Part shown: piece after piece, positions 11,481-60,500 of the stretch
How positions within the stretch are numbered: position 1 is the first letter of the stretch
Layout of the letters: each line of letters starts with the position of its first letter
Assembly: GCF_058153355.1 (NCBI RefSeq)
Contig: NZ_CM177019.1
Reading direction: 5' to 3' (one strand)
DNA: 64,000 bases
Position numbers and translations under genes: made by a program
Notes under the pieces: model-generated
Told to the model about the DNA's origin: nothing
Databases searched by the model: none
What the model saw: the letters and a program-made list of their open reading frames with translations, nothing else

Positions 11481-12878
11481 ATGCATCATCTTTCAAGGCT
11501 TGATAAAGCCTTTCTGCGCAAAGGGATCCAACTTTCCCGCGCCAACAATATTGTTTCATTATGTCGTCCATCAGGAGCCAGTGCCCGCGTACTGCTGCCG
11601 GACGAACTGCCGCTGGAAGAAAAAGCAGTAACACAACTGCTTGATTTTGCAGAAGTGAAGCTACCAGACCACCCAGGTTATGTGCGCCAGACGTGCGCGA
11701 CGCCAGATTTTCATCCCGGCAATGGCGTCCCCGTTGGCGCGGTGGTGGCCTCAACGCCGGATTTAGTCATTCCCGCCGCCATCGGCACCGATATTTCTTG
11801 TGGCATGCGGCTGCTGACGACCGGATTAACACTTGAGCAAGCCGAAGCGCATAAAGACGTCATCGCTCAGCGGTTAACGCAAGTGCTACTGCAAAATGAG
11901 CGCGATGTTCCGTTATCCGCACAGGCGTTCACCGCGCTTTTTGATGGCGGACCGGCAGATTGCGTGTCGACCTTGCCATCAGCAGGTCTCTGGACACGCA
12001 CGAATATCCCCCGAATGGTACAAGAGATTGACCGCTGCATTGGGCTTAACGAGCATAACAGTCATTCGCGTTATGCCCCACCCGCCCTGCTGGCAACGGA
12101 CCGCGCATTACTCCGCGATCCTTGTCTTGGTACGCCGGGTTCAGGTAATCATTTTATTGAACTTCAGGTCGTTGATAGCGTGGTTGATCGCCATGTAGCC
12201 TGGCAACAAGGGCTGAAAACAGGCGATATTGTGGTGATGATCCACAGTGGATCGCGAGATGTTGGCTTTTACGTCGGAAGACGCTGGATGGATCGCGCCC
12301 GTGCTGAATGGCCCACCGGACATAAACATCCACAAAGCGGGTTATATGGTCTGGCAGGCGGACTGGCGGAGGAATATCTACAAGCGATAGGAATGGCGGC
12401 GCGTTACGCGTGGTTAAATCGCGTGACAATTGCCGAAATGGTGCGCGTATGTCTTGCCAATCTCTTTCATCAGGACAATTCGCATCTGGTGGTGGATGTG
12501 CCACATAACATCATCCTTCGCGAGCATGAAATGAATATTCATCGCAAAGGCGCAACACCGGCACGAGTGGGCAATCTGGCGTTAATCCCCGGTTCAATGG
12601 GCGATTATTCGTGGCTTGCGGTAGGTTGCGGCAACCCGGAGTGGCTGTGGTCTTGCAGTCACGGAGCAGGACGCAGCCAGCGTCGGCAGGCCATGCGCTC
12701 ACGCGCGACTGAAGAGTCAACGTTGCCGTGGCAATGCGTCACATTGCGCGAAGAACGGCGTATTGAAGAAGCGCCAGCTGCTTATAAAGATATTGGTCCG
12801 GTTATCGAAGCCCAACAAGAGGCCGGATTAATTCATCCAGCGGTTAGATTCCGACCGTGGTTAACGTTTAAAGCATAA
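11481..12878 (+). CDS. RtcB-family RNA ligase-like protein (orphan paralog)
   Basis: 465-aa ORF with RtcB hallmark motifs (DISCGMR, GSGNHFIE, HSGSRDVG, CSHGAGR). No rtcA or rtcR gene adjacent. Confidence 0.75.
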   Translation: MHHLSRLDKAFLRKGIQLSRANNIVSLCRPSGASARVLLPDELPLEEKAVTQLLDFAEVKLPDHPGYVRQTCATPDFHPGNGVPVGAVVASTPDLVIPAAIGTDISCGMRLLTTGLTLEQAEAHKDVIAQRLTQVLLQNERDVPLSAQAFTALFDGGPADCVSTLPSAGLWTRTNIPRMVQEIDRCIGLNEHNSHSRYAPPALLATDRALLRDPCLGTPGSGNHFIELQVVDSVVDRHVAWQQGLKTGDIVVMIHSGSRDVGFYVGRRWMDRARAEWPTGHKHPQSGLYGLAGGLAEEYLQAIGMAARYAWLNRVTIAEMVRVCLANLFHQDNSHLVVDVPHNIILREHEMNIHRKGATPARVGNLALIPGSMGDYSWLAVGCGNPEWLWSCSHGAGRSQRRQAMRSRATEESTLPWQCVTLREERRIEEAPAAYKDIGPVIEAQQEAGLIHPAVRFRPWLTFKA

Positions 12879-15089: not shown

Positions 15090-15275
15090 GTCACCCGTAG
15101 GCCTGATAAGACGCGCAAGCGTCGCATCAGGCATCGCGTGTCGGATGCGGCGCGAGCGCCTTATCCGACCTACATTGATGGTCCCCGTAGGCCTGATAAG
15201 ACGCGTCAGCGTCGCATCAGGCTTCAATTGCCGGAGAAAGCGATAATGCCTCATCCGGTCTACAGTGCAGGTGAA
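15090..15275. repeat. REP/BIME palindromic elements in the sucB-sucC intergenic region
   Basis: Repeated gcctgataagacgcg...cgtcgcatcaggc and ggatgcggcg palindromic units. Confidence 0.8.
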
Positions 15276-16517: not shown

Positions 16518-19319
16518 TTATTCGACGTTCAGCGCGTCATTAACCAGATCTTGTTGCTGTTTCTGGTGAACGGACATATACCCTACCGCCGGAGAGGCGG
16601 AGGCCGGGCGGCCTGCATAACGCAGAGAAGCCCCAAACGGAATCACTTCACGGAAATGATGCTGGCTGCAGTACCATGCGCCCTGGTTGAGCGGCTCTTC
16701 CTGGCACCAGACAAAATCCTTGACGTGAGCAAACTGCTGCAACACTTCCTGCATCGCTTTATGCGGGAACGGGTAGAGTTGCTCGATACGCACAATGGCG
16801 ACATCGTGTTGATTGTTCTTACGACGTTGTTCCAGCAGGTCGTAATAAACCTTACCAGAACACATCACTACACGCTTAACGCCCTTCGGATCAAGCTCGT
16901 CGATTTCACCGATGGCTGGCAGGAAGGTGCCGTTCGCCAGTTCTTCGAGGCTGGAAACCGCCAGCGGATGACGCAGCAGGGATTTCGGCGACATCACGAC
17001 CAGCGGACGACGCATCCCGCGCAGCGCCTGACGACGCAGCATGTGGTAAACCTGTGCCGGGGTAGACGGTACGCACACCTGCATGTTTTGCTCAGCGCAA
17101 AGTTGCAGATAACGTTCCAGACGCGCGGAGGAGTGCTCCGGCCCCTGCCCTTCATACCCGTGCGGCAGCAGCATTACCAGACCACACATCCGGCCCCATT
17201 TCTGTTCGCCAGAGGAGATGAACTGGTCGATAACCACCTGCGCACCGTTGGCAAAGTCACCAAACTGCGCTTCCCAGATGGTCAGCGTGCGCGGCTCTGC
17301 GGTGGCATAACCGTATTCAAACGCCAGCACTGCTTCTTCAGACAGTACGGAGTCCCAGACGCGGAACGCGCCCTGACCATTATGGATATGTTGCAGGGGC
17401 GTGTAAGTGGAACCGTTGGACTGGTTGTGGATCACCGCATGGCGATGGAAGAAGGTACCGCGACCGGAGTCTTCACCCGACAGGCGGACCGGAATGCCTT
17501 CATCAACCAGCGTGGCGTAAGCGAGGTTTTCCGCGCCGCCCCAGTCGAACAGTTTCTCACCGGCAGCCATTGCCTGGCGATCGCCATAAATTTTGGCAAC
17601 GCGAGACTGCATTTCAACCGCTTCCGGCACCGTACTGATACGTTTAGCCAGTTCCTGCAGGCGCTTCATCTCAACTTTGTTCGGGTACTCTTCGTCCCAT
17701 TCGTGGTTGAGGTACGGCGACCAGGTGAAAGAGTGCATGTTCATCGGACGCCACTCTGCTACCACGCAATCGCCAGCATCCAGCGCATCACGGTACAGGT
17801 TAACCATCTCGGTGGCATCTTCCAGCGTCACGACTTTTTCCTGCTCCAGCTTGTCAGCGTAGATTTTGCGCGGCGTCGGATGTTTTTTGATTTTCTGATA
17901 CATCAGCGGCTGAGTTGCACTCGGCTCGTCGGCTTCGTTGTGGCCGTGACGGCGGTAGCACACCAGGTCGATGAAGACATCACGTTTAAAGGTGTTACGG
18001 AAATCGAGCGCCAGACGGGTCACAAAGGCAACGGCTTCCGGATCATCCGCATTAACGTGGAAAATCGGTGCCTGTACCATCTTGCCGATATCAGTACAGT
18101 ACGGCGTAGAACGGGCATCCAGCGGGTTAGAGGTAGTGAAACCAACCTGGTTGTTGATAACGATACGTACCGTACCGCCAACTTCATAACCACGCGCTTT
18201 CGACATGTTCAGGGTTTCCTGAACCACGCCCTGCCCGGTCACTGCGGCATCACCGTGGATGGTGATTGGCAGCACTTTGTTGCTGCTCGGCTCATCGAGT
18301 CTGTCCAGACGGGCGCGAACAGAACCGATAACTACCGGGCTTACAATCTCAAGGTGAGACGGGTTAAACGCCAGCGCCAGGTGAACCAGGCCGCCATCGG
18401 TCTGGAAGTCAGACGAGAAGCCCATGTGGTATTTCACGTCGCCCGTGCCGAGGTGTTCTTTATGTTTACCGGCAAACTCGTCGAACAAGTCTTGCGGTTT
18501 TTTACCCAGCACGTTAACCAGCACGTTCAGACGACCACGGTGCGCCATCCCGAGAACCACTTCACGGGTGCCGCTATTGCCAGCATGGCGGATCATCTCT
18601 TTAAGCATCGGGATTAACGCGTCACCGCCTTCCAGCGAGAAGCGTTTTGCGCCAGGGAATTTTGCGCCGAGGTAACGTTCAAGGCCTTCAGCGGCGGTCA
18701 GTTCGCTTAAGAAGCGTTTTTTCTCTTCGCTATTGAAAGTCGCGCGACCAGACTCGATACGCTGTTGGATCCAGCGTTTTTCTTCGGTGCTGGTAATGTG
18801 CATGTACTCGGCACCAATCGGGCCGCAGTAGGTTTGCTTGAGGGCTTCCAGCAGCTCGCCGAGTTTCATGGTTTCTTTGCCGCTGGCAAATGAACCGACG
18901 TTGAAGGTCTCCTGGAAGTCTGCTTCGGTCAGATCGTGGAAAGACGGATCCAGATCGGCCACTTTATCTTGCTGCCACAGTCCCAGCGGATCGAGATTCG
19001 CATGCTGGTGACCGCGGAAGCGGTATGCGTTAATGAGCTGCAGGACTTTAACCTGCTTCACATTGGTGTCAGGGTCGGAGATCGTTGAAGAGTAACGTGA
19101 AGCGTCTTTCGCCAGGCGGCGGAAATATTCACGCGTTTGAGAGTGGAATTGATCCGGTTTGACTCCCGTACCAGGTAACTGCTGGAACGTCGAACGCCAG
19201 TTAGCGTCAACCGAGTCAGGATCGGTTAAGAAGTCTTCATAGAGCTGTTCTATCCAGCTCTGGTTTGCGCCAGAGAGGTAAGAAGAGTCCAACCAGGCTT
19301 TCAAAGCGCTGTTCTGCAT
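16518..19319 (-). CDS. sucA: 2-Oxoglutarate dehydrogenase E1 component
   Basis: 933-aa ORF starting [17 protein letters not shown]. Confidence 0.97.
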
Positions 19320-19476
19320 CGTGATCCCTTAAGCATCTTTTTTATGCTTACTTCGCCGTGGATACTACCACGCACAGTGATGTGCGTGCCGGGGTTCACT
19401 TGCGAGCTCTTGTCTACGTAGTGGCTCGCGAAGGAACCTTTAAAAACTGTCTTAGTGTCAGGGGCAGTTTTTAAAG

Positions 19477-19762
19477 ATTTCCTGCATTTCTTTTGTAGGC
19501 CGGATAAGGCGTTCACGCCGCATCCGGCGCTGTTTGCCTGATGCGACGCTTGCGCGTCTTATCAGGCCTACGATTCCTGCATTTCTTTTGTAGGCCGGAT
19601 AACGCATTCACGCCGCATCCGGCACTGGTTGCCTGATGCGACGCTTGCGCGTCTTATCAGGCCTACGATTTCTGCATTTCTTTTGTAGGCCGGATAAGGC
19701 GTTCACGCCGCATCCGGCACTGGTTGCCTGATGCGACGCTTGTGCGTCTTATCAGGCCTGGG
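19477..19762. repeat. Three tandem copies of a ~95-bp REP/BIME unit in the sdhB-sucA intergenic region
   Basis: Unit tctgcatttcttttgtaggccggataaggcgttcacgccgcatccggc...gcctgatgcgacgcttgcgcgtcttatcaggcctac repeated head-to-tail three times with a few substitutions. Confidence 0.85.
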
Positions 19763-19763
19763 T

Positions 19764-20480
19764 TTACGCATTACGCTGCAACAACATCGACTTGATATGG
19801 CCGATGGCGCGCGTCGGGTTCAGCCCCTTCGGACATACACTGACGCAGTTCATGATGCTGTGACAGCGGAATACGCTGAATGCATCGCTCAAACCGTCGA
19901 GGCGGCTGTCAGTCTCGGTATCACGGCTATCGATCAGGAAACGATATGCCGCTAACAAGCCTGCCGGGCCGATAAACTTATCGGGATTCCACCAGAAAGA
20001 CGGACAAGAGGTTGAACAACATGCGCAGAGAATACATTCATACAGCCCGTCGATTTTTTCGCGCTGCTCTGGCATCTGTAAATGCTCGCGAGCTGGCGGA
20101 TTTTGTCCATTATTCAACAGGTAAGGCTTAATTTTCTCATATTGCGCATAGAATTGTCCCATGTCTACCACCAAATCGCGGATCACCGGTAAACCTGGCA
20201 GCGGGCGAATCACAATCTTCTTGCCCGGCTGGTTGAGTGCCGAAATCGGGGTAATACAGGCCAGACCATTCTTACCGTTCATGTTCAGACCGTCGGAACC
20301 GCACACACCTTCACGGCAGGAGCGGCGGAACGACAGGCTGGGATCTTTCTCTTTCAACTGGATAAGCGCATCCAGCAGCATCATGTCGCGACCTTCTTCC
20401 GCTTCCAGGGTGTAATCCTGCATACGCGGAGCATCATCAACATCCGGGTTATAGCGATAAATTGAAAACTCGAGTCTCAT
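19764..20480 (-). CDS. sdhB: Succinate dehydrogenase iron-sulfur subunit
   Basis: 238-aa ORF with cysteine clusters for the Fe-S centres. Confidence 0.97.
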   Translation of the reverse strand: MRLEFSIYRYNPDVDDAPRMQDYTLEAEEGRDMMLLDALIQLKEKDPSLSFRRSCREGVCGSDGLNMNGKNGLACITPISALNQPGKKIVIRPLPGLPVIRDLVVDMGQFYAQYEKIKPYLLNNGQNPPAREHLQMPEQREKIDGLYECILCACCSTSCPSFWWNPDKFIGPAGLLAAYRFLIDSRDTETDSRLDGLSDAFSVFRCHSIMNCVSVCPKGLNPTRAIGHIKSMLLQRNA

Positions 20481-20495: not shown

Positions 20496-22262
20496 TTAGT
20501 AAGTACGAATCTTCGGCGGGAATGCCGGGCGCAGTTTCGGTTCCATGTTGACGCTTCGGCGCGTCATGGATTCCGACTCTGGCAGATACAGGGAGTGGCA
20601 CAGCCAGTTTTCATCATCACGATCCGGGAAGTCGAAGCGGCTATGCGCGCCACGGCTTTCGGTACGGAAGTTGGCAGAAACAGCCGTTGCATACGCCGTT
20701 TCCATCAGGTTATCCAGTTCCAGGCATTCAACGCGCTGGGTGTTGAACTCGCTGGAAGTGTCATCCAGACGGGCATTTTTCAAACGCTCGCGGATCACTT
20801 TCAACTGCTCAAGCCCTTTTGCCATCGCATCACCTTCACGGAAGACCGAGAAGTTATGCTGCATACATTCTTGCAGTGCTTTACGAATCGCCACCGGATC
20901 TTCACCATTACGGTTGTTGTTCCAGCGATTCAGACGCTCCAGAGACGCTTCAACATCAGACTCGCTGGCATCGCGCAGTGCACCCTGCTCGGCAATAGAC
21001 TCTTGCAGATGCAGGCCCGCTGCGCGACCAAAGACCACCAGATCCAGCAGCGAGTTGCCGCCAAGACGGTTAGCGCCGTGTACCGATACACAAGCGATTT
21101 CACCTACCGCGAACAGCCCCGGAACAACCACATCTTCGCCTTTCTCGTTCACCGTCAGCGCCTGACCGGTCACTTTGGTCGGAATACCGCCCATCATGTA
21201 GTGACAGGTTGGGATAACCGGAATCGGCTCTTTCACCGGATCGACGTGTGCGAAGGTACGGGAGAGTTCAAGGATACCCGGCAGACGGGATTCGAGAACT
21301 TCTTTACCCAGGTGGTCGAGTTTCAGTTTTGCATGTGGCCCCCACGGACCATCACAGCCGCGACCTTCACGGATTTCGATCATGATGGAACGCGCCACCA
21401 CGTCACGGCCCGCCAGGTCTTTGGCGTTCGGCGCATAACGCTCCATAAAGCGTTCGCCATGTTTGTTCAGCAGGTAACCGCCTTCACCACGGCAACCTTC
21501 GGTGACCAGTACGCCCGCACCTGCTATACCGGTCGGGTGGAACTGCCACATTTCCATATCCTGCACAGGTACACCTGCACGGATAGCCATGCCGACGCCA
21601 TCGCCGGTGTTAATGTGCGCGTTGGTGGTGGACTGATAAATACGCCCTGCCCCGCCGGTTGCCAGCACAGTCGCACGGGCTTTGAAGTAAACCACTTCAC
21701 CGGTTTCGATGCACAGTGCGGTACAACCAACTACCGCGCCATCCTGGTTCTTCACCAGATCCAGCGCATACCACTCGGAGAAAATGGTGGTGTGGTTTTT
21801 CAGGTTCTGCTGATAAAGCGTGTGCAACAGTGCGTGACCAGTACGGTCAGCTGCCGCCGCAGTACGTGCCGCCTGCTCGCCACCGAAGTTTTTCGACTGG
21901 CCGCCAAACGGACGTTGATAGATACGACCATCATCAAGACGCGAGAACGGTAGCCCCATGTGTTCCAGTTCCAGAATCGCTTCCGGCCCGGTTTTACACA
22001 TATATTCAATCGCGTCCTGGTCACCGATATAGTCCGACCCTTTTACGGTGTCGTACATATGCCATTCCCAGTTATCTTCATGGGTATTACCCAGCGCAAC
22101 AGTAATGCCGCCTTGCGCAGAAACGGTATGGGAACGGGTCGGGAAGACTTTGGAGAGCAGCGCACAGGTTTGGCCGCTCTGGGAAATTTGCAGCGCCGCG
22201 CGCATACCTGCGCCACCGGCACCAATCACAACTGCATCAAATTCTCTGACTGGCAATTTCAT
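20496..22262 (-). CDS. sdhA: Succinate dehydrogenase flavoprotein subunit
   Basis: Start placed at [19 protein letters not shown] (FAD-binding motif); the ORF track extends 4 codons further upstream. Confidence 0.97.
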
Positions 22263-22609
22263 CACACACCCCACACCACAACGAATCCATAAATCACGTA
22301 AACCACCAGTGCAACGACAATCACCAGTTGCAGCATCAGGCGCAAGGCCAGCGGTTTAACGTAGTCGGTCAACACCTGCCACATGCCGATCCAGGCATGG
22401 ATCAAGATAGAAAACAGCGCCAGCAGGGTGAACACTTTGGTGAACGCAGAGGCGAAGAAACCAATCCAGACTTCATATGTCAGCTCGCCACTGGTAGCGA
22501 AAAAACCGACCATATAAATGATGTAAAGCGTCAGGACGATAGCGGTAGCGCGAACGAGGATGAAATCATGTACGCCATTGCGTCCTAATGCGGAGGCGTT
22601 GCTTACCAT
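22262..22609 (-). CDS. sdhD: Succinate dehydrogenase membrane anchor subunit
   Basis: 115-aa hydrophobic protein. Confidence 0.95.
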
Positions 22610-23701: not shown

Positions 23702-24985
23702 ATGGCTGATACAAAAGCAAAACTCACCCTCAACGGGGATACAGCTGTTGAACTGGATGTGCTGAAAGGCACGCTGGGTCAAGACGTTATTGATATCCGT
23801 ACTCTCGGTTCAAAAGGTGTGTTCACCTTTGACCCAGGCTTCACTTCAACCGCATCCTGCGAATCTAAAATTACTTTTATTGATGGTGATGAAGGTATTT
23901 TGCTGCACCGCGGTTTCCCGATCGATCAGCTGGCGACCGATTCTAACTACCTGGAAGTTTGTTACATCCTGCTGAATGGTGAAAAACCAACTCAGGAACA
24001 GTATGACGAATTTAAAACGACGGTGACCCGTCATACCATGATCCACGAGCAGATTACCCGTCTGTTCCATGCTTTCCGTCGTGACTCGCACCCTATGGCA
24101 GTCATGTGTGGTATTACCGGCGCGCTGGCGGCGTTCTATCACGACTCGCTGGATGTTAACAATCCTCGTCATCGTGAAATTGCCGCGTTCCGCCTGCTGT
24201 CAAAAATGCCGACCATGGCCGCGATGTGTTACAAGTATTCCATTGGTCAGCCATTCGTTTACCCGCGCAACGATCTCTCCTATGCCGGTAACTTCCTGAA
24301 TATGATGTTCTCCACGCCGTGCGAACCGTATGAAGTCAACCCGATTCTGGAACGTGCTATGGACCGTATTCTGATCCTGCACGCTGACCATGAACAGAAC
24401 GCCTCTACCTCCACCGTGCGTACCGCTGGCTCTTCGGGGGCGAACCCGTTTGCCTGTATCGCAGCAGGTATTGCTTCACTGTGGGGACCTGCGCACGGTG
24501 GTGCTAACGAAGCAGCGCTGAAAATGCTGGAAGAAATCAGCTCCGTTAAACACATTCCGGAATTTGTTCGTCGTGCGAAAGACAAGAATGACTCTTTCCG
24601 CCTGATGGGCTTCGGTCACCGCGTGTACAAAAACTACGACCCGCGCGCCACCGTCATGCGTGAAACCTGCCACGAAGTCCTGAAAGAGCTGGGCACGAAG
24701 GATGACCTGCTGGAAGTAGCTATGGAGCTGGAAAATATCGCGCTGAACGATCCGTACTTTATTGAGAAAAAACTGTACCCTAACGTCGATTTCTACTCTG
24801 GTATCATCCTGAAAGCGATGGGTATTCCGTCTTCCATGTTCACCGTCATATTCGCTATGGCACGTACAGTTGGCTGGATCGCCCACTGGAGCGAAATGCA
24901 CAGTGACGGCATGAAGATTGCCCGTCCACGTCAGCTGTATACCGGCTATGAAAAACGCGATTTTAAAAGCGACATCAAACGTTAA
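23702..24985 (+). CDS. gltA: Citrate synthase
   Basis: 427-aa ORF starting [36 protein letters not shown]. Confidence 0.98.
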
Positions 24986-39068: not shown

Positions 39069-39153
39069 TACTGCTCCTGAACGGTTTACAGGAGTAAGTG
39101 TAGACGTTGGCAAATGATGTTTGTGAAGTTAATCCTGTTGTAGCAGGGCAAGA

Positions 39154-39977
39154 TTACGAAAGCACGCTCCCCGCAAGGACTGACGCCAGGTAGTTTCTGT
39201 CCATGGCTGCCCTTTCCATTCACACGTGAAATCAATAAGTTCATCAGGGACATCGCAAACAATGTGAAGACGGATTTCTTCTCTGCCGTGACTCTTTTCA
39301 CTAATTGCGTAACTGTCATGCTCTGGATTATTTAATTCTTTCAGTGAGAATTTTTCCTCAAAGGCTTTATTTAGCCGCCCCTGGTTTCCTTTTACAGCGA
39401 ATAAATAATCACCTCCCTGTTTTTGTATCTTCTCTGCAATATCTTTCTGGCAACCCATCGCATCAGTTGTGATGATTTTTCCTTTAATATCCAGCATGTT
39501 AAGAAGTTCAGGGATAGCTGTAATTTCATTTGATTTCTCATCCGTCCTGATCTGTCCGATGACCAGACTGTGCATTGTTGAGAACGCACTAATGACATGA
39601 ATCGCTCCCCTGCAGCGACTCTTGTCATAAGAATGCCGGAGCTTTTTTCCATCAATTGCAATGACGTCTTTATCATCTGAAGAATGGCAGTCACGCATCC
39701 AGTTAATAAAGCACTCGTGAAATTTTGCAGGACTGATACAGGATACAACTCTGGCAATGGTATCGTGAACAGGAATACCATTTTCAAAATCACCCTATTG
39801 CTTCAAAAAATCGAGATGTGTTTCCCCAAAATCCTCTATATCTTCTCAACCTTCTGCACCCGAAATAACGGCGCAAATAGTCAACAGTAGAATATCCGAT
39901 AATTTATGTTCCACTTTCCAGGCTTGTCTGTAATCGGGGATAATAGAAATATGTTCCATCAATTTTTTAAGTACCAT
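39154..39977 (-). pseudogene. H-repeat-associated (ISAs1-family) transposase pseudogene
   Basis: N-terminus [43 protein letters not shown] hits an in-frame TGA. Downstream frames carry [20 protein letters not shown]...[18 protein letters not shown] and the terminal [16 protein letters not shown], requiring a frameshift and an internal deletion after ...EWKG. Confidence 0.85.
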
Positions 39978-40370
39978 TTTGTTCTCCTTAATTATGTAAG
40001 GAGTATTTGATCATGTATAAGCAATAAAAAACAGCTTCAGGTAATGAGGAATATCTCAATTTTTAAACATAAAATGCGAATTGTTTAGTACAAAAAAGCA
40101 GCGTTACGTGATCTTTTCCTGCCATGGGTCTTTACCACAGCAGCTGGGGTTGTTTGGGACCGACTTCCGACAGCAGATCCCGGTGAGCCTGCCACCATCT
40201 CTTCACAAGCTTATGCTTATTACATGCAAAACGTCCCGTTTTGCATCTTTGTGCCTACGGCACACGATGATCTTTCCCTGAGGAGTCATACTTTGTTAGG
40301 ATAAAAAACCTTTAAATAGCTTTCCTACCTTCCAATAAAAACCACAGAATCAGCAATGTTTAAATTTCAA

Positions 40371-41211: not shown

Positions 41212-43977
41212 TCAATGTGATGAATCATAAACATTATTCAAAAATAGATTTTGTTCTTTTCGGCGTCGTATAACAAGGCCAGCAACTCCGCCATTTGTAA
41301 TATCAAGAAATTCATTGGAGGCACCTATATAATCCTTTTGATTAAGTTTAGAATTCAAATTCGGTGCCTTACTCATGCTCCCCATATTAAACAATAAACT
41401 TATTAACGCATCAAATTCGTACTGATATAAATCCACACTCACTGTTCTTTTAAGCTCACTAACAAAACCAGATAAACGCTCTTCAAATAACTCATCAGCT
41501 TTAGCAATTGTTATTCCATGCTGAAATTCTTCTGGTAAAACTATATCATTGCAACGTTGTGTAGCAATTAAATGTCCATAACCTATAGTACAGTAACCTT
41601 CTGAATCATTATATGCTGTTAGTTGTAAATATTCCCATTCTTTTATAAAACCCTTACCTTTATTTGATACATTCAAATCTGCAATGGCGATCCTTTCAGC
41701 AGTTTGTTCTTCGTTAAAACTATTGATGTACCCCTCCATCAATATATCAATTGGATCATGTAAATCATCCCGTCTATAAAATGGAGGTATTTGTGTATTA
41801 TTCGGCGGAGGCGCTCCATTGTTTCCTGGATAGTATTCAAAATGCAACATATAAACCACTTCTTCCCCAGGGATTATAACTGGAGGCCTCCCTGTATCAG
41901 GTTTAATCATCAACCCTGTTTTGGCAATTATTGCCCCTTGCATAATATGATCATTAATCTTTACTAAAATACTTGATGGATCAACTTCACCATACCGCAC
42001 ATAGAAATGCCGACCATCTCTAGTCGAGTGCTCAATCGTAACTTGCCAAGTACCGTAATAGTATCGAGAAATAGCTCTTACTATTCCGTTGCAAACCGAA
42101 ACAATATCAGACTTCGGTTCCGTATATAGATCACGCGCTCCATGTTTTCTATTACCATTATTACGATTTCGTCCAAATATAGCTTGAGAGGCATTTCGAT
42201 CTGTCAAGGCAGCAGCCCAAAAATAATTTTTCCACTTTCCATTTTTGTCATTATTAGGTTTTACTTTTAAAGGAAAAATAATTTGATTTGATTTTTTCTG
42301 AGATAATGAATCTAAAAACACAACCGGATGAAAATGCCACACAGCATCATCACTATTAAACGGAGATACCCCGCTCATCCACTCCAGATCCAGCTGCCAC
42401 TTCTCACAGTATGCCACTTCCTCTGTATCCAGATCTTTATAAAATCCTTCCCACCGCCCTGTCGAGCGCCCTCCGTACCATTCGCTGTGGTGTTTAACTA
42501 TCAGATGATTCACCACATTTCTCACCAGTGGTTCACGCACGATCAGCGCCTGTCTGATCTCTTCCTCCGTCACTTTTCCATCACCGTCCTGATCCATACC
42601 CGCCATCAGCTCACGATAAAAGGGCGGTACCTGCTCATACAGCCACTCATCTCCCTGTTCTGCGGCACGGCTTATTGAGTCAAACGCTTCCGGCACCCAT
42701 CCTTCGTACGGGCTGTACGTCATGTCACCGCTGCTGTTCTCCTCCAGCGGTTGAAAACCCAGCTTCAGTAAATCATACTGTCCGGCCTCTTCAACATCCT
42801 TTTGTGGCAGCCAGCCGGTTCCGGTGATATTAAACCACCACTGCTGCGATTCATCCGTGACTGGTGTCGTGGCTTCCCGCGGAAGAACGCGCTGAGCACC
42901 CAGCGTGGCTGCGGTTGCGGTAAATACCTCCTGTCCCGGAACGGCCTGCCGGGTGTATAAAATTATCCCTTTTGGTGCCAGAACAGTCCGTTTTTCTCCC
43001 TTAACGCCTGCCGGGTTGGATAAGAACTTTGGCATATTCGGGTCTGTACTCAGAACCTCCAGATGGACGAACCACTCGCGCTCAATCTCACCGCTTCCCT
43101 CGCCAGGATAATCCTCGCATCCCATAAATCCGACCGGTGTTCCGGCACTGACTTTCCACTCTTCCGTTTCGTCGACCGTCTGTACCGAGTCAAAAATGCC
43201 TTTTGCCTTCGCCTTCTGCATCCACTCAGGCATCAGCATCTGTATTTCGCCATCTGACTCCATCAGATCCGGATCCAGGGTCACCCAGTACTGCTCATTC
43301 CCCGGTTTATTGCCTTCCAGCAGGCGAACCAGTCCGAATGTCGTCAGGACCGGCTGGCCGTTATTGGTCACGTAAAAACGTCCGGTCCGGGATGACACAA
43401 ACCGATCTCCCGCATTAAGTGTCCTGTTTCCGCTGATTTTCGGGGGTATCCAGTACGTGGCATGATCTCCGCTTTCCTGCCCCTCGGGAAGGCCGTTCTT
43501 TCCCGGGATGTATCGGTGCAGCAATATGCCACCATGCCCGGTTTTAACTTTATAGCAGGGGGAGCCGGGATAATCGTTCACCGGGGCCAGATGCATATAG
43601 AGACAGTAAAATTCCAGCCAGCTTTCTTTTTTTTGCGGGTCTGGCTGGCACTGCGATTTCACCAGAACAAATGTGCTGCTGTAACGGAGTTGCTGCCCTT
43701 TGTAGGGGCCTTTCAGGTAATCATTATTTATCCGGTACGCCGCAATGGTGCCATCGGCCATAAACTGAAGAGGAACCGGTTCTCCGGTAGCGGCGGTATC
43801 CGGTTTCAGGGCTGATAACGGATTAGACACGTCACTGATATGTATCCCGCCGTGCCACAGCCCGTTTCCACCCAGCAGCCAGGTTCCGTGCGCTTCTTTG
43901 TCAATAAGCCGCATTATCTCATCCAGTGAGCGAAACTCTTTGCCTTCTTTATCCCTGATGGGATGGCTGATTTTCAT
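41212..43977 (-). CDS. VgrG-linked T6SS effector with C-terminal T4-lysozyme-like (GH24) muramidase domain and internal M23-peptidase-like domain
   Basis: 921 aa. Residues ~770-915 align motif-for-motif with T4 lysozyme (KEWEYLQLTAYNDSEGYCTIGYGHL vs ...[24 protein letters not shown]; Glu/Asp/Thr triad positions present). Residues ~605-716 carry HGARD...MLHFEYY, resembling M23 HxxxD...HxH. EF-hand-like loop DQDGDGKVTEEE at residues 462-473. Start lies 9 nt after the vgrG stop with an AGGA ribosome-binding site. Confidence 0.75.
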   Translation of the reverse strand: MKISHPIRDKEGKEFRSLDEIMRLIDKEAHGTWLLGGNGLWHGGIHISDVSNPLSALKPDTAATGEPVPLQFMADGTIAAYRINNDYLKGPYKGQQLRYSSTFVLVKSQCQPDPQKKESWLEFYCLYMHLAPVNDYPGSPCYKVKTGHGGILLHRYIPGKNGLPEGQESGDHATYWIPPKISGNRTLNAGDRFVSSRTGRFYVTNNGQPVLTTFGLVRLLEGNKPGNEQYWVTLDPDLMESDGEIQMLMPEWMQKAKAKGIFDSVQTVDETEEWKVSAGTPVGFMGCEDYPGEGSGEIEREWFVHLEVLSTDPNMPKFLSNPAGVKGEKRTVLAPKGIILYTRQAVPGQEVFTATAATLGAQRVLPREATTPVTDESQQWWFNITGTGWLPQKDVEEAGQYDLLKLGFQPLEENSSGDMTYSPYEGWVPEAFDSISRAAEQGDEWLYEQVPPFYRELMAGMDQDGDGKVTEEEIRQALIVREPLVRNVVNHLIVKHHSEWYGGRSTGRWEGFYKDLDTEEVAYCEKWQLDLEWMSGVSPFNSDDAVWHFHPVVFLDSLSQKKSNQIIFPLKVKPNNDKNGKWKNYFWAAALTDRNASQAIFGRNRNNGNRKHGARDLYTEPKSDIVSVCNGIVRAISRYYYGTWQVTIEHSTRDGRHFYVRYGEVDPSSILVKINDHIMQGAIIAKTGLMIKPDTGRPPVIIPGEEVVYMLHFEYYPGNNGAPPPNNTQIPPFYRRDDLHDPIDILMEGYINSFNEEQTAERIAIADLNVSNKGKGFIKEWEYLQLTAYNDSEGYCTIGYGHLIATQRCNDIVLPEEFQHGITIAKADELFEERLSGFVSELKRTVSVDLYQYEFDALISLLFNMGSMSKAPNLNSKLNQKDYIGASNEFLDITNGGVAGLVIRRRKEQNLFLNNVYDSSH

Positions 43978-60399: not shown

Positions 60400-60500
60400 A
60401 TGCGGCGTGAACGCCTTATCCGTCCTACAAAATAGTGCAAATTCAATATATTGCACCATCCTCGTAGGCCTGATGAACGTAGCGTATCAGGCTATCATAA
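60400..60500. repeat. REP palindromic elements
   Basis: gccggatgcggcgtgaacgccttatccg and aggcctgat...atcaggc palindromic units. Confidence 0.7.

Follow-up and report, generated by a model that had tools for sequence, protein, structure and literature searches.

The spacer between sdhB and sucA in the 64,000-nucleotide stretch of DNA that we analysed (hereafter the window) holds a BIME-2 array of three tandem units, each made of a Z2 REP, 7 nt, an inverted Y REP and 18 nt, giving six REPs. By analogy with REP arrays whose effects are known, this array probably stabilises the sdhCDAB mRNA and acts as a partial attenuator of read-through into sucABCD.

To delimit the array, we ran Tandem Repeats Finder, which reported one array at 19479-19759 with a period of 95, 3.0 copies, 95% matches, no indels and a score of 520. 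A repeat search combined with MAFFT alignment placed the 95-bp copies at 19479-19573, 19574-19668 and 19669-19763, the other two being 96% and 93% identical to the first copy, with a mean column identity of 97%. These results bear out the original prediction of a head-to-tail triplicated unit of about 95 bp between sdhB and sucA, whose coordinates (19477-19762) were right to within 1-2 bases. The outcome that it had named as counting against it, alignment revealing non-repetitive sequence, did not occur, the aligned copies being 93-96% identical. Its placement of the array within sdhCDAB-sucABCD also agrees with our family matches, which put all these genes in order on the - strand. The genes and signals around the array are as follows:

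20496-22274, - strand: sdhA
19764-20480, - strand: sdhB (SdhB family NF004616, 373 bits)
19764-19766, - strand: stop codon of sdhB (TAA)
19479-19763, - strand: whole BIME-2 array, 3 x 95 bp, six palindromic units, 18-nt inter-unit linkers included
19317-19319, - strand: start codon of sucA (ATG)
16518-19319, - strand: sucA, 2-oxoglutarate dehydrogenase E1 (TIGR00239, 1672 bits)

Upstream of sdhB lie sdhA, sdhD and sdhC and downstream of sucA lie sucB, sucC and sucD, all on the - strand, with gltA (23702-24985) divergent. The sdhB-sucA spacer measures 444 bp, of which 285 are repeat, and the array is wholly extragenic, lying between the sdhB stop and the sucA start. Short ORFs that run across the repeat (19458-19607 and 19301-19516 on the - strand, 19731-19955 on the + strand) were taken as chance ORFs in palindromic sequence.

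Several other features of the window were recorded outside this spacer. Just past sucD and convergent with it, a 465-aa ORF (11481-12878, + strand) matches RtcB-family RNA ligase models over residues 213-464 only, below the curated cut-offs; E. coli K-12 is not known to have this RtcB-like ORF beyond sucD. An Rfam group II intron D1-D4-2 match at 40079-40196 (42.9 bits, gathering score 36) adjoins a truncated-looking DDE transposase ORF (39129-39698) and is also near a 921-aa ORF (41212-43977) with phage-lysozyme and M23-peptidase matches, and the segment 39129-43977 (- strand) looks like a mobile-element remnant or island. At 60429-60471 (+ strand) there is a match to the Rfam sRNA ES036 (CssrF) with 45.5 bits against a gathering score of 37.6.

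To resolve the anatomy of the array, we combined a degenerate Z2-REP pattern, RNA folding and Rfam matches. The pattern gave 5 matches in the window (3 in this array and 2 between sucB and sucC) against 0.00 expected from 100 shuffles. In the mRNA sense, each unit consists of a 36-nt Z2-type REP (GTAGGCCTGATAAGACGCGCAAGCGTCGCATCAGGC), a 7-nt linker, a 34-nt inverted Y-type REP (GCCGGATGCGGCGTGAACGCCTTATCCGGCCTAC) and an 18-nt linker (AAAAGAAATGCAGRAATC). From the sdhB side to the sucA side, the elements are:

19726-19761, - strand: unit 1 (sdhB side), Z2-type REP, mRNA CCAGGCCUGAUAAGACGCACAAGCGUCGCAUCAGGC (pattern match with 2 mismatches, RNA fold)
19719-19725, - strand: unit 1, S linker, 7 nt
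19685-19718, - strand: unit 1, inverted Y-type REP (iREP, 3' CTAC on the mRNA; naRNA4 match at 19688-19758, 86.8 bits, + strand)
19631-19666, - strand: unit 2 (middle, extra), Z2-type REP (exact pattern match)
19590-19623, - strand: unit 2, Y-type iREP, with the S linker at 19624-19630 (naRNA4 match at 19593-19663, 74.6 bits)
19536-19571, - strand: unit 3 (sucA side), Z2-type REP (exact pattern match)
19495-19528, - strand: unit 3, Y-type iREP, with the S linker at 19529-19535 (naRNA4 match at 19498-19568, 85.7 bits)

REP and inverted REP thus alternate along the array with a short S linker between them. In all three units, 7 nt separate the Z2 REP from the Y REP (AACCAGT, AACCAGT and AAACAGC on the mRNA). 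The 18-nt linker (AAAAGAAAUGCAGRAAUC on the mRNA) is specific to this locus and copies the array's own right-hand flank, so that the duplicated segment ran from the GTAG of the Z2 REP to the base of the next structural element. GTAG/CTAC is found in 5 of the 6 palindromic units, the REP proximal to sdhB having CCAG in place of its 5' GTAG.

That proximal REP unit starts 2 nt past the TAA of sdhB, and the stem of its hairpin starts 6 nt past the stop. REPs less than 16 nt from a stop codon have been reported to lower the translational output of the gene that they follow (Liang et al. 2015, as cited in PMC12306157), and by analogy the array could act by lowering sdhB translation, ribosomes stalling at the stop because of the first REP hairpin with ensuing mRNA cleavage and trans-translation. 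The spacing agrees with such an effect, but only the first REP is needed for it and the triplication would therefore go unexplained; we consider this account of the array unlikely.

We assigned the array to a family using Rfam and the published definition of BIME-2, namely Z2 and Y REPs that face opposite ways, are joined by a short linker and are repeated in tandem, the number of copies differing from strain to strain (PMC3333891). All testable features of that definition are present in the array. The three + strand matches to Rfam naRNA4 (RF02564) listed above are full-length (1-77 of 77) and exceed the gathering score of 59.5. Since naRNA4 is one Y-linker-Z2 repeat of REP325 (PMC4550694), these matches mean that each unit of the array is a Y-Z2 pair, built of Y and Z2 REPs and not of Z1. 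The original prediction had called the repeat a REP/BIME unit, and a Y and a Z2 in opposite orientation across a 7-nt linker, with a full-length naRNA4 match in every unit, give that name its precise content. The repeated part of the sequence is a dispersed one: in 5,425 of 5,426 E. coli genomes, the REP part of our query matched a median of at least 28 places per genome, with up to 40 pieces counted in each.

The same matches could be read as genes, the array then encoding naRNA4-like HU-binding small RNAs that condense the nucleoid. All three matches above the gathering score are, however, on the + strand and so antisense to the operon, where a promoter-like site was not found, and the three matches on the - strand (the mRNA sense) score 42.6-53.7 bits, below 59.5. 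In practice the Rfam model will match any Y-Z2 pair, and we rejected a naRNA4 sRNA gene as a candidate, such a role being extremely improbable here. We also rejected an intrinsic (Rho-independent) terminator: none of the REPs is followed by a U-tract, and on the mRNA each iREP runs into AAAAGAAAUG. On either strand of 19200-19900, a search for terminator-like sites (hairpin and U-tract) returned 0 and no sigma-70-like promoter was detected, and the Rfam scan of the spacer (E <= 1) gave no family other than naRNA4, sucA riboswitch-like motifs included.

As a stabiliser and partial attenuator, the array would work at the level of the mRNA. On read-through transcripts it would form very stable hairpins that block 3'-to-5' exonucleases, so that the upstream sdhCDAB message would be protected once the transcript had ended or been cut in the spacer. 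It would also attenuate transcription into sucABCD through partial and probably partly Rho-dependent termination. Acting alongside the internal suc promoter and the processing of the sucA leader by RNase III, these two effects would fix the ratio of sdh to suc mRNA. The classic intercistronic REPs of malE-malF stabilise mRNA and favour the upstream gene; they resemble the array of the window in placing REP hairpins between cistrons of one operon and differ from it in the operon concerned and in the number and arrangement of the REPs.

The closest model for this mechanism is REP325, the BIME-2 between yjdM and yjdN of K-12 from which naRNA4 was derived. REP325 likewise consists of tandem Y-Z2 units with a short linker between co-oriented, co-transcribed genes. 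It raises the mRNA of the upstream gene yjdM and lowers the downstream gene yjdN about 8-10-fold, partly through Rho, and the same preprint stresses that REP effects depend on context (bioRxiv 10.64898/2026.03.23.713779). REP325 is thus a demonstrated dual partial terminator and stabiliser of upstream mRNA, whereas for the array of the window these effects are predicted. The two further differ in copy number (six units in REP325, three in the window) and in orientation, as the mRNA of the window carries the reverse complement, with Z2 first and the inverted Y after it, and in the window the linker between units is locus-specific.

At the homologous position, K-12 has a REP cluster in a 300-bp spacer that begins with the same Z2-S-Y pair and ends on the same right-hand flank (AAAGAAATGCAGGAAATC) as the window. 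Rather than a tandem array, it comprises one Z2-Y pair followed, beyond a different linker of 12 nt, by a third and shorter REP, and its first REP keeps the GTAG that is missing from the first REP of the window. The published internal terminator, suc promoter and RNase III processing all concern this K-12 allele. RNA-seq in K-12 uncovered two signals within the sdh-suc operon, a terminator that is partly read through and a secondary promoter (PMC4161252; PMC6393394), and together the published studies describe a 10-kb read-through transcript starting at the sdh promoter, a secondary promoter between sdhB and sucA, and RNase III cuts at three sites in the sucA leader (PMC4161252, PMC6393394, PMC9731577 and PMC5371410 jointly). 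Together with the findings on REP325, the K-12 RNA-seq results lend support to the role in mRNA stability or partial termination that the original prediction had proposed. A literature search pairing sucABCD with "repetitive extragenic palindromic" returned nothing.

The operon contains a second Y/Z2 array, located in another spacer:

15097-15222, - strand: sucB-sucC BIME-2 (two exact Z2 REPs 90 bp apart; naRNA4 match at 15100-15170, 76.5 bits)

This array differs from the one between sdhB and sucA in its spacing of about 90 bp and in its linkers. Its K-12 counterpart is a named hot spot of DNA gyrase cleavage, and BIME-2 elements in general are enriched in gyrase cleavage sites, independently of transcription and mostly in their Y REPs (PMC6379681). 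Having three Y REPs, the sdhB-sucA array could by analogy act on DNA, as a strong site of gyrase binding and cleavage or as a cruciform-forming site, and in this way control supercoiling between two blocks of highly transcribed genes. Strains without REPs and other genera nevertheless get by with a short, non-BIME-2 hairpin at this position, and we regard a DNA-level function as improbable, although a gyrase role and a role of the RNA could coexist.

Folding of the RNA agrees with the stable hairpins that the stabiliser and attenuator role calls for. The 471-nt spacer in mRNA sense folded at -206.5 kcal/mol compared with -141.4 +/- 5.9 for shuffled sequences (z = -11.1), and the individual units folded at -40.9 to -44.8 kcal/mol (z = -4.8 to -6.6). 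REP stems are predicted to fold with an internal mismatch. Units 1 and 3 favour two separate REP hairpins and unit 2 one long Z2:Y hairpin (-40.9 kcal/mol), the two forms being nearly isoenergetic. The long form raises the possibility that the array serves as an RNase III substrate, each Z2 REP and its adjacent inverted Y REP pairing into a long imperfect duplex that is cut to part the sdh and suc mRNAs. Besides the fold preferred by unit 2, an RNA-seq signal for RNase III processing of sucA (NC_000913.3 position 758515; PMC5371410) speaks for this, as it falls within the K-12 REP cluster. This signal lies at the centre of the third, shorter REP (758498-758527), which is absent from the allele of the window, so the K-12 processing data are not directly transferable; RNA-seq reads of REPs moreover map ambiguously, and two of the three units prefer separate short hairpins. 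A conserved stem next to the array is an equally good or better candidate for the cleavage site, and we think RNase III cutting within the array itself quite unlikely. Gyrase binding, lowered sdhB translation and RNase III cleavage of Z2:Y duplexes would in any case be non-exclusive additions to the role as stabiliser and attenuator.

The conserved stem is the following feature:

19433-19482, - strand: conserved sucA-leader stem-loop directly 3' of the array, mRNA GGAAAUCUUUAAAAACUG ... CAGUUUUUAAAGGUUCC (inverted repeat, fold, compensatory changes)

It lies outside the repeat and forms the fixed right-hand edge of the variable slot. The stem is kept in 28 Enterobacterales loci with loops of 4 to 143 nt, and 10 of its 17 pairs have compensatory changes, with 90.7% of cells paired when the 5' arms are chosen by best complementarity. 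In Erwinia and Rosenbergiella the inner stem of the sucA leader is rewritten in sequence and still complementary. An Rfam search gave no family for this stem, which could correspond to the RNase III stem of Cunningham and Guest (1998).

To assess variation at the locus, we searched 5,426 complete E. coli genomes by megablast using positions 19100-20000 as a query. The locus was present in 5,425 of them, with a query coverage of at least 80% in 3,527, so that about 35% lack the repeat part. Allele shares were then estimated from two evenly stepped samples of 60 rows, one obtained with the window allele and one with the REP-less allele as query, together covering 118 chromosomes: 39 (33%) carried the REP-less allele, 51 (43%) the K-12-type (three-REP) allele, 21 (18%) the two-unit allele, 5 (4%) the three-unit allele and 2 (2%) the four-unit allele, figures that are rough and come from a database skewed to clinical isolates. 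The alleles differ in the length of the spacer:

200 bp: no REP, sole hairpin GCCGGGGAAATCCCCCGGC (WEM25)
300 bp: Z2-S-Y and a third, shorter REP (K-12 MG1655)
311 bp: as K-12, with a leader variant 11 bp longer (E2348/69)
349 or 360 bp: two units (47258, GPEC606)
444 or 455 bp: three units (window, EC42405, EC444)
550 bp: four units (TUM17543)

The expectation that copy number would differ between strains, which had come with a suggestion to compare E. coli genomes, thus held, with alleles ranging from REP-less through the K-12 form to two, three and four units. The three-unit form is a rare allele: among the best 60 matches to the window, only EC42405 shared its exact configuration and the other 59, strain 042 included, had two units. 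The window and EC42405 differ at five positions, all within the repeat.

Comparison of the units points to the origin of the third. The window and the two-unit allele have the same unit 1, and unit 3 of the window is 1 nt away from unit 2 of the two-unit allele; the middle unit is the extra copy, having no counterpart in that allele. The array arose from a two-unit allele whose distal unit was duplicated, for which unequal recombination, replication slippage or TnpA-REP-mediated amplification could each have been the route. Because each of two leader haplotypes is found with more than one copy number, expansion and contraction have taken place repeatedly. In REP-less E. coli, a 36-nt segment with a Citrobacter-like hairpin (GCCGGGGAAATCCCCCGGC) occupies the position, and the BIME alleles replace this segment instead of being inserted beside it. 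Given its resemblance to the hairpin of Citrobacter, the REP-less allele is probably the ancestral state.

For a wider comparison we scanned species-representative genomes for SdhB, yielding at least 80 loci, E. coli and Salmonella not being among the loci listed. In 79 of the 80 listed loci sdhB and sucA are adjacent, separated by about 85-120 nt in Vibrio and Pseudoalteromonas and by about 200-660 nt in most Enterobacterales; the Salmonella spacer is 523 nt long (PMC9731577). E. albertii has 3.9 copies of the 95-bp unit of the window after sdhB (2225-2594 of the extracted locus), in Superficieibacter electus the slot contains an unrelated REP-like unit of 68 bp in 5.4 copies (2286-2655 of the extracted locus), and Phytobacter has one REP there. 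Most of 28 other Enterobacterales loci have a GC-rich hairpin of 9-15 bp within 70 nt of the sdhB stop, followed in some by a T-run, and the REP-less allele of E. coli likewise has a strong GC-rich hairpin within 70 nt of the stop. On these sequence comparisons, the slot directly past sdhB nearly always holds a stable hairpin, which REPs appear to have replaced in E. coli and E. albertii, and this points to an RNA-level role of the structure as such.

The variation also allows the array to be read as a neutral by-product. It would then be a selfish or slippage-prone repeat with a drifting number of copies, and no effect of the third unit on expression would be under selection. The alleles range from REP-less and the K-12 form to two, three and four units, with several counts on each of the two leader haplotypes, the three-unit alleles are rare (about 4%) and the exact configuration of the window recurred in EC42405 only among the best 60 matches, and a variable tandem number is general in BIME-2 elements, where it is ascribed to TnpA-REP or recombination (PMC3333891). 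About a third of E. coli strains lack REPs at this locus, from which it follows that the array is dispensable, that its copy number may be neutral and that the effect of a third copy may be nil. Against this, a stable hairpin stands right after sdhB in nearly all lineages and the slot is hardly ever vacant, which argues that structure as such is selected. We view a neutral array as possible, though short of probable. Under the stabiliser and attenuator reading itself, the third copy may add little over two and may be neutral. Conversely, the alleles form a series of 0, 3, 4, 6 or 8 REP hairpins between nearly identical flanks, and the dose of REPs might adaptively tune the expression of succinate dehydrogenase (SDH) against that of 2-oxoglutarate dehydrogenase and succinyl-CoA synthetase between E. 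coli lineages, an idea that we hold to be quite unlikely.

Much of this picture is already known, including BIME-2 arrays and their variation between strains, mRNA stabilisation, attenuation and gyrase binding, and the K-12 spacer is a documented regulatory region. The survey has a modest value, which lies in ready-made natural alleles (none, K-12, 2, 3 and 4 units) in an operon of central metabolism, an allele series that could be used to measure the effect of REP dose on read-through and mRNA stability.
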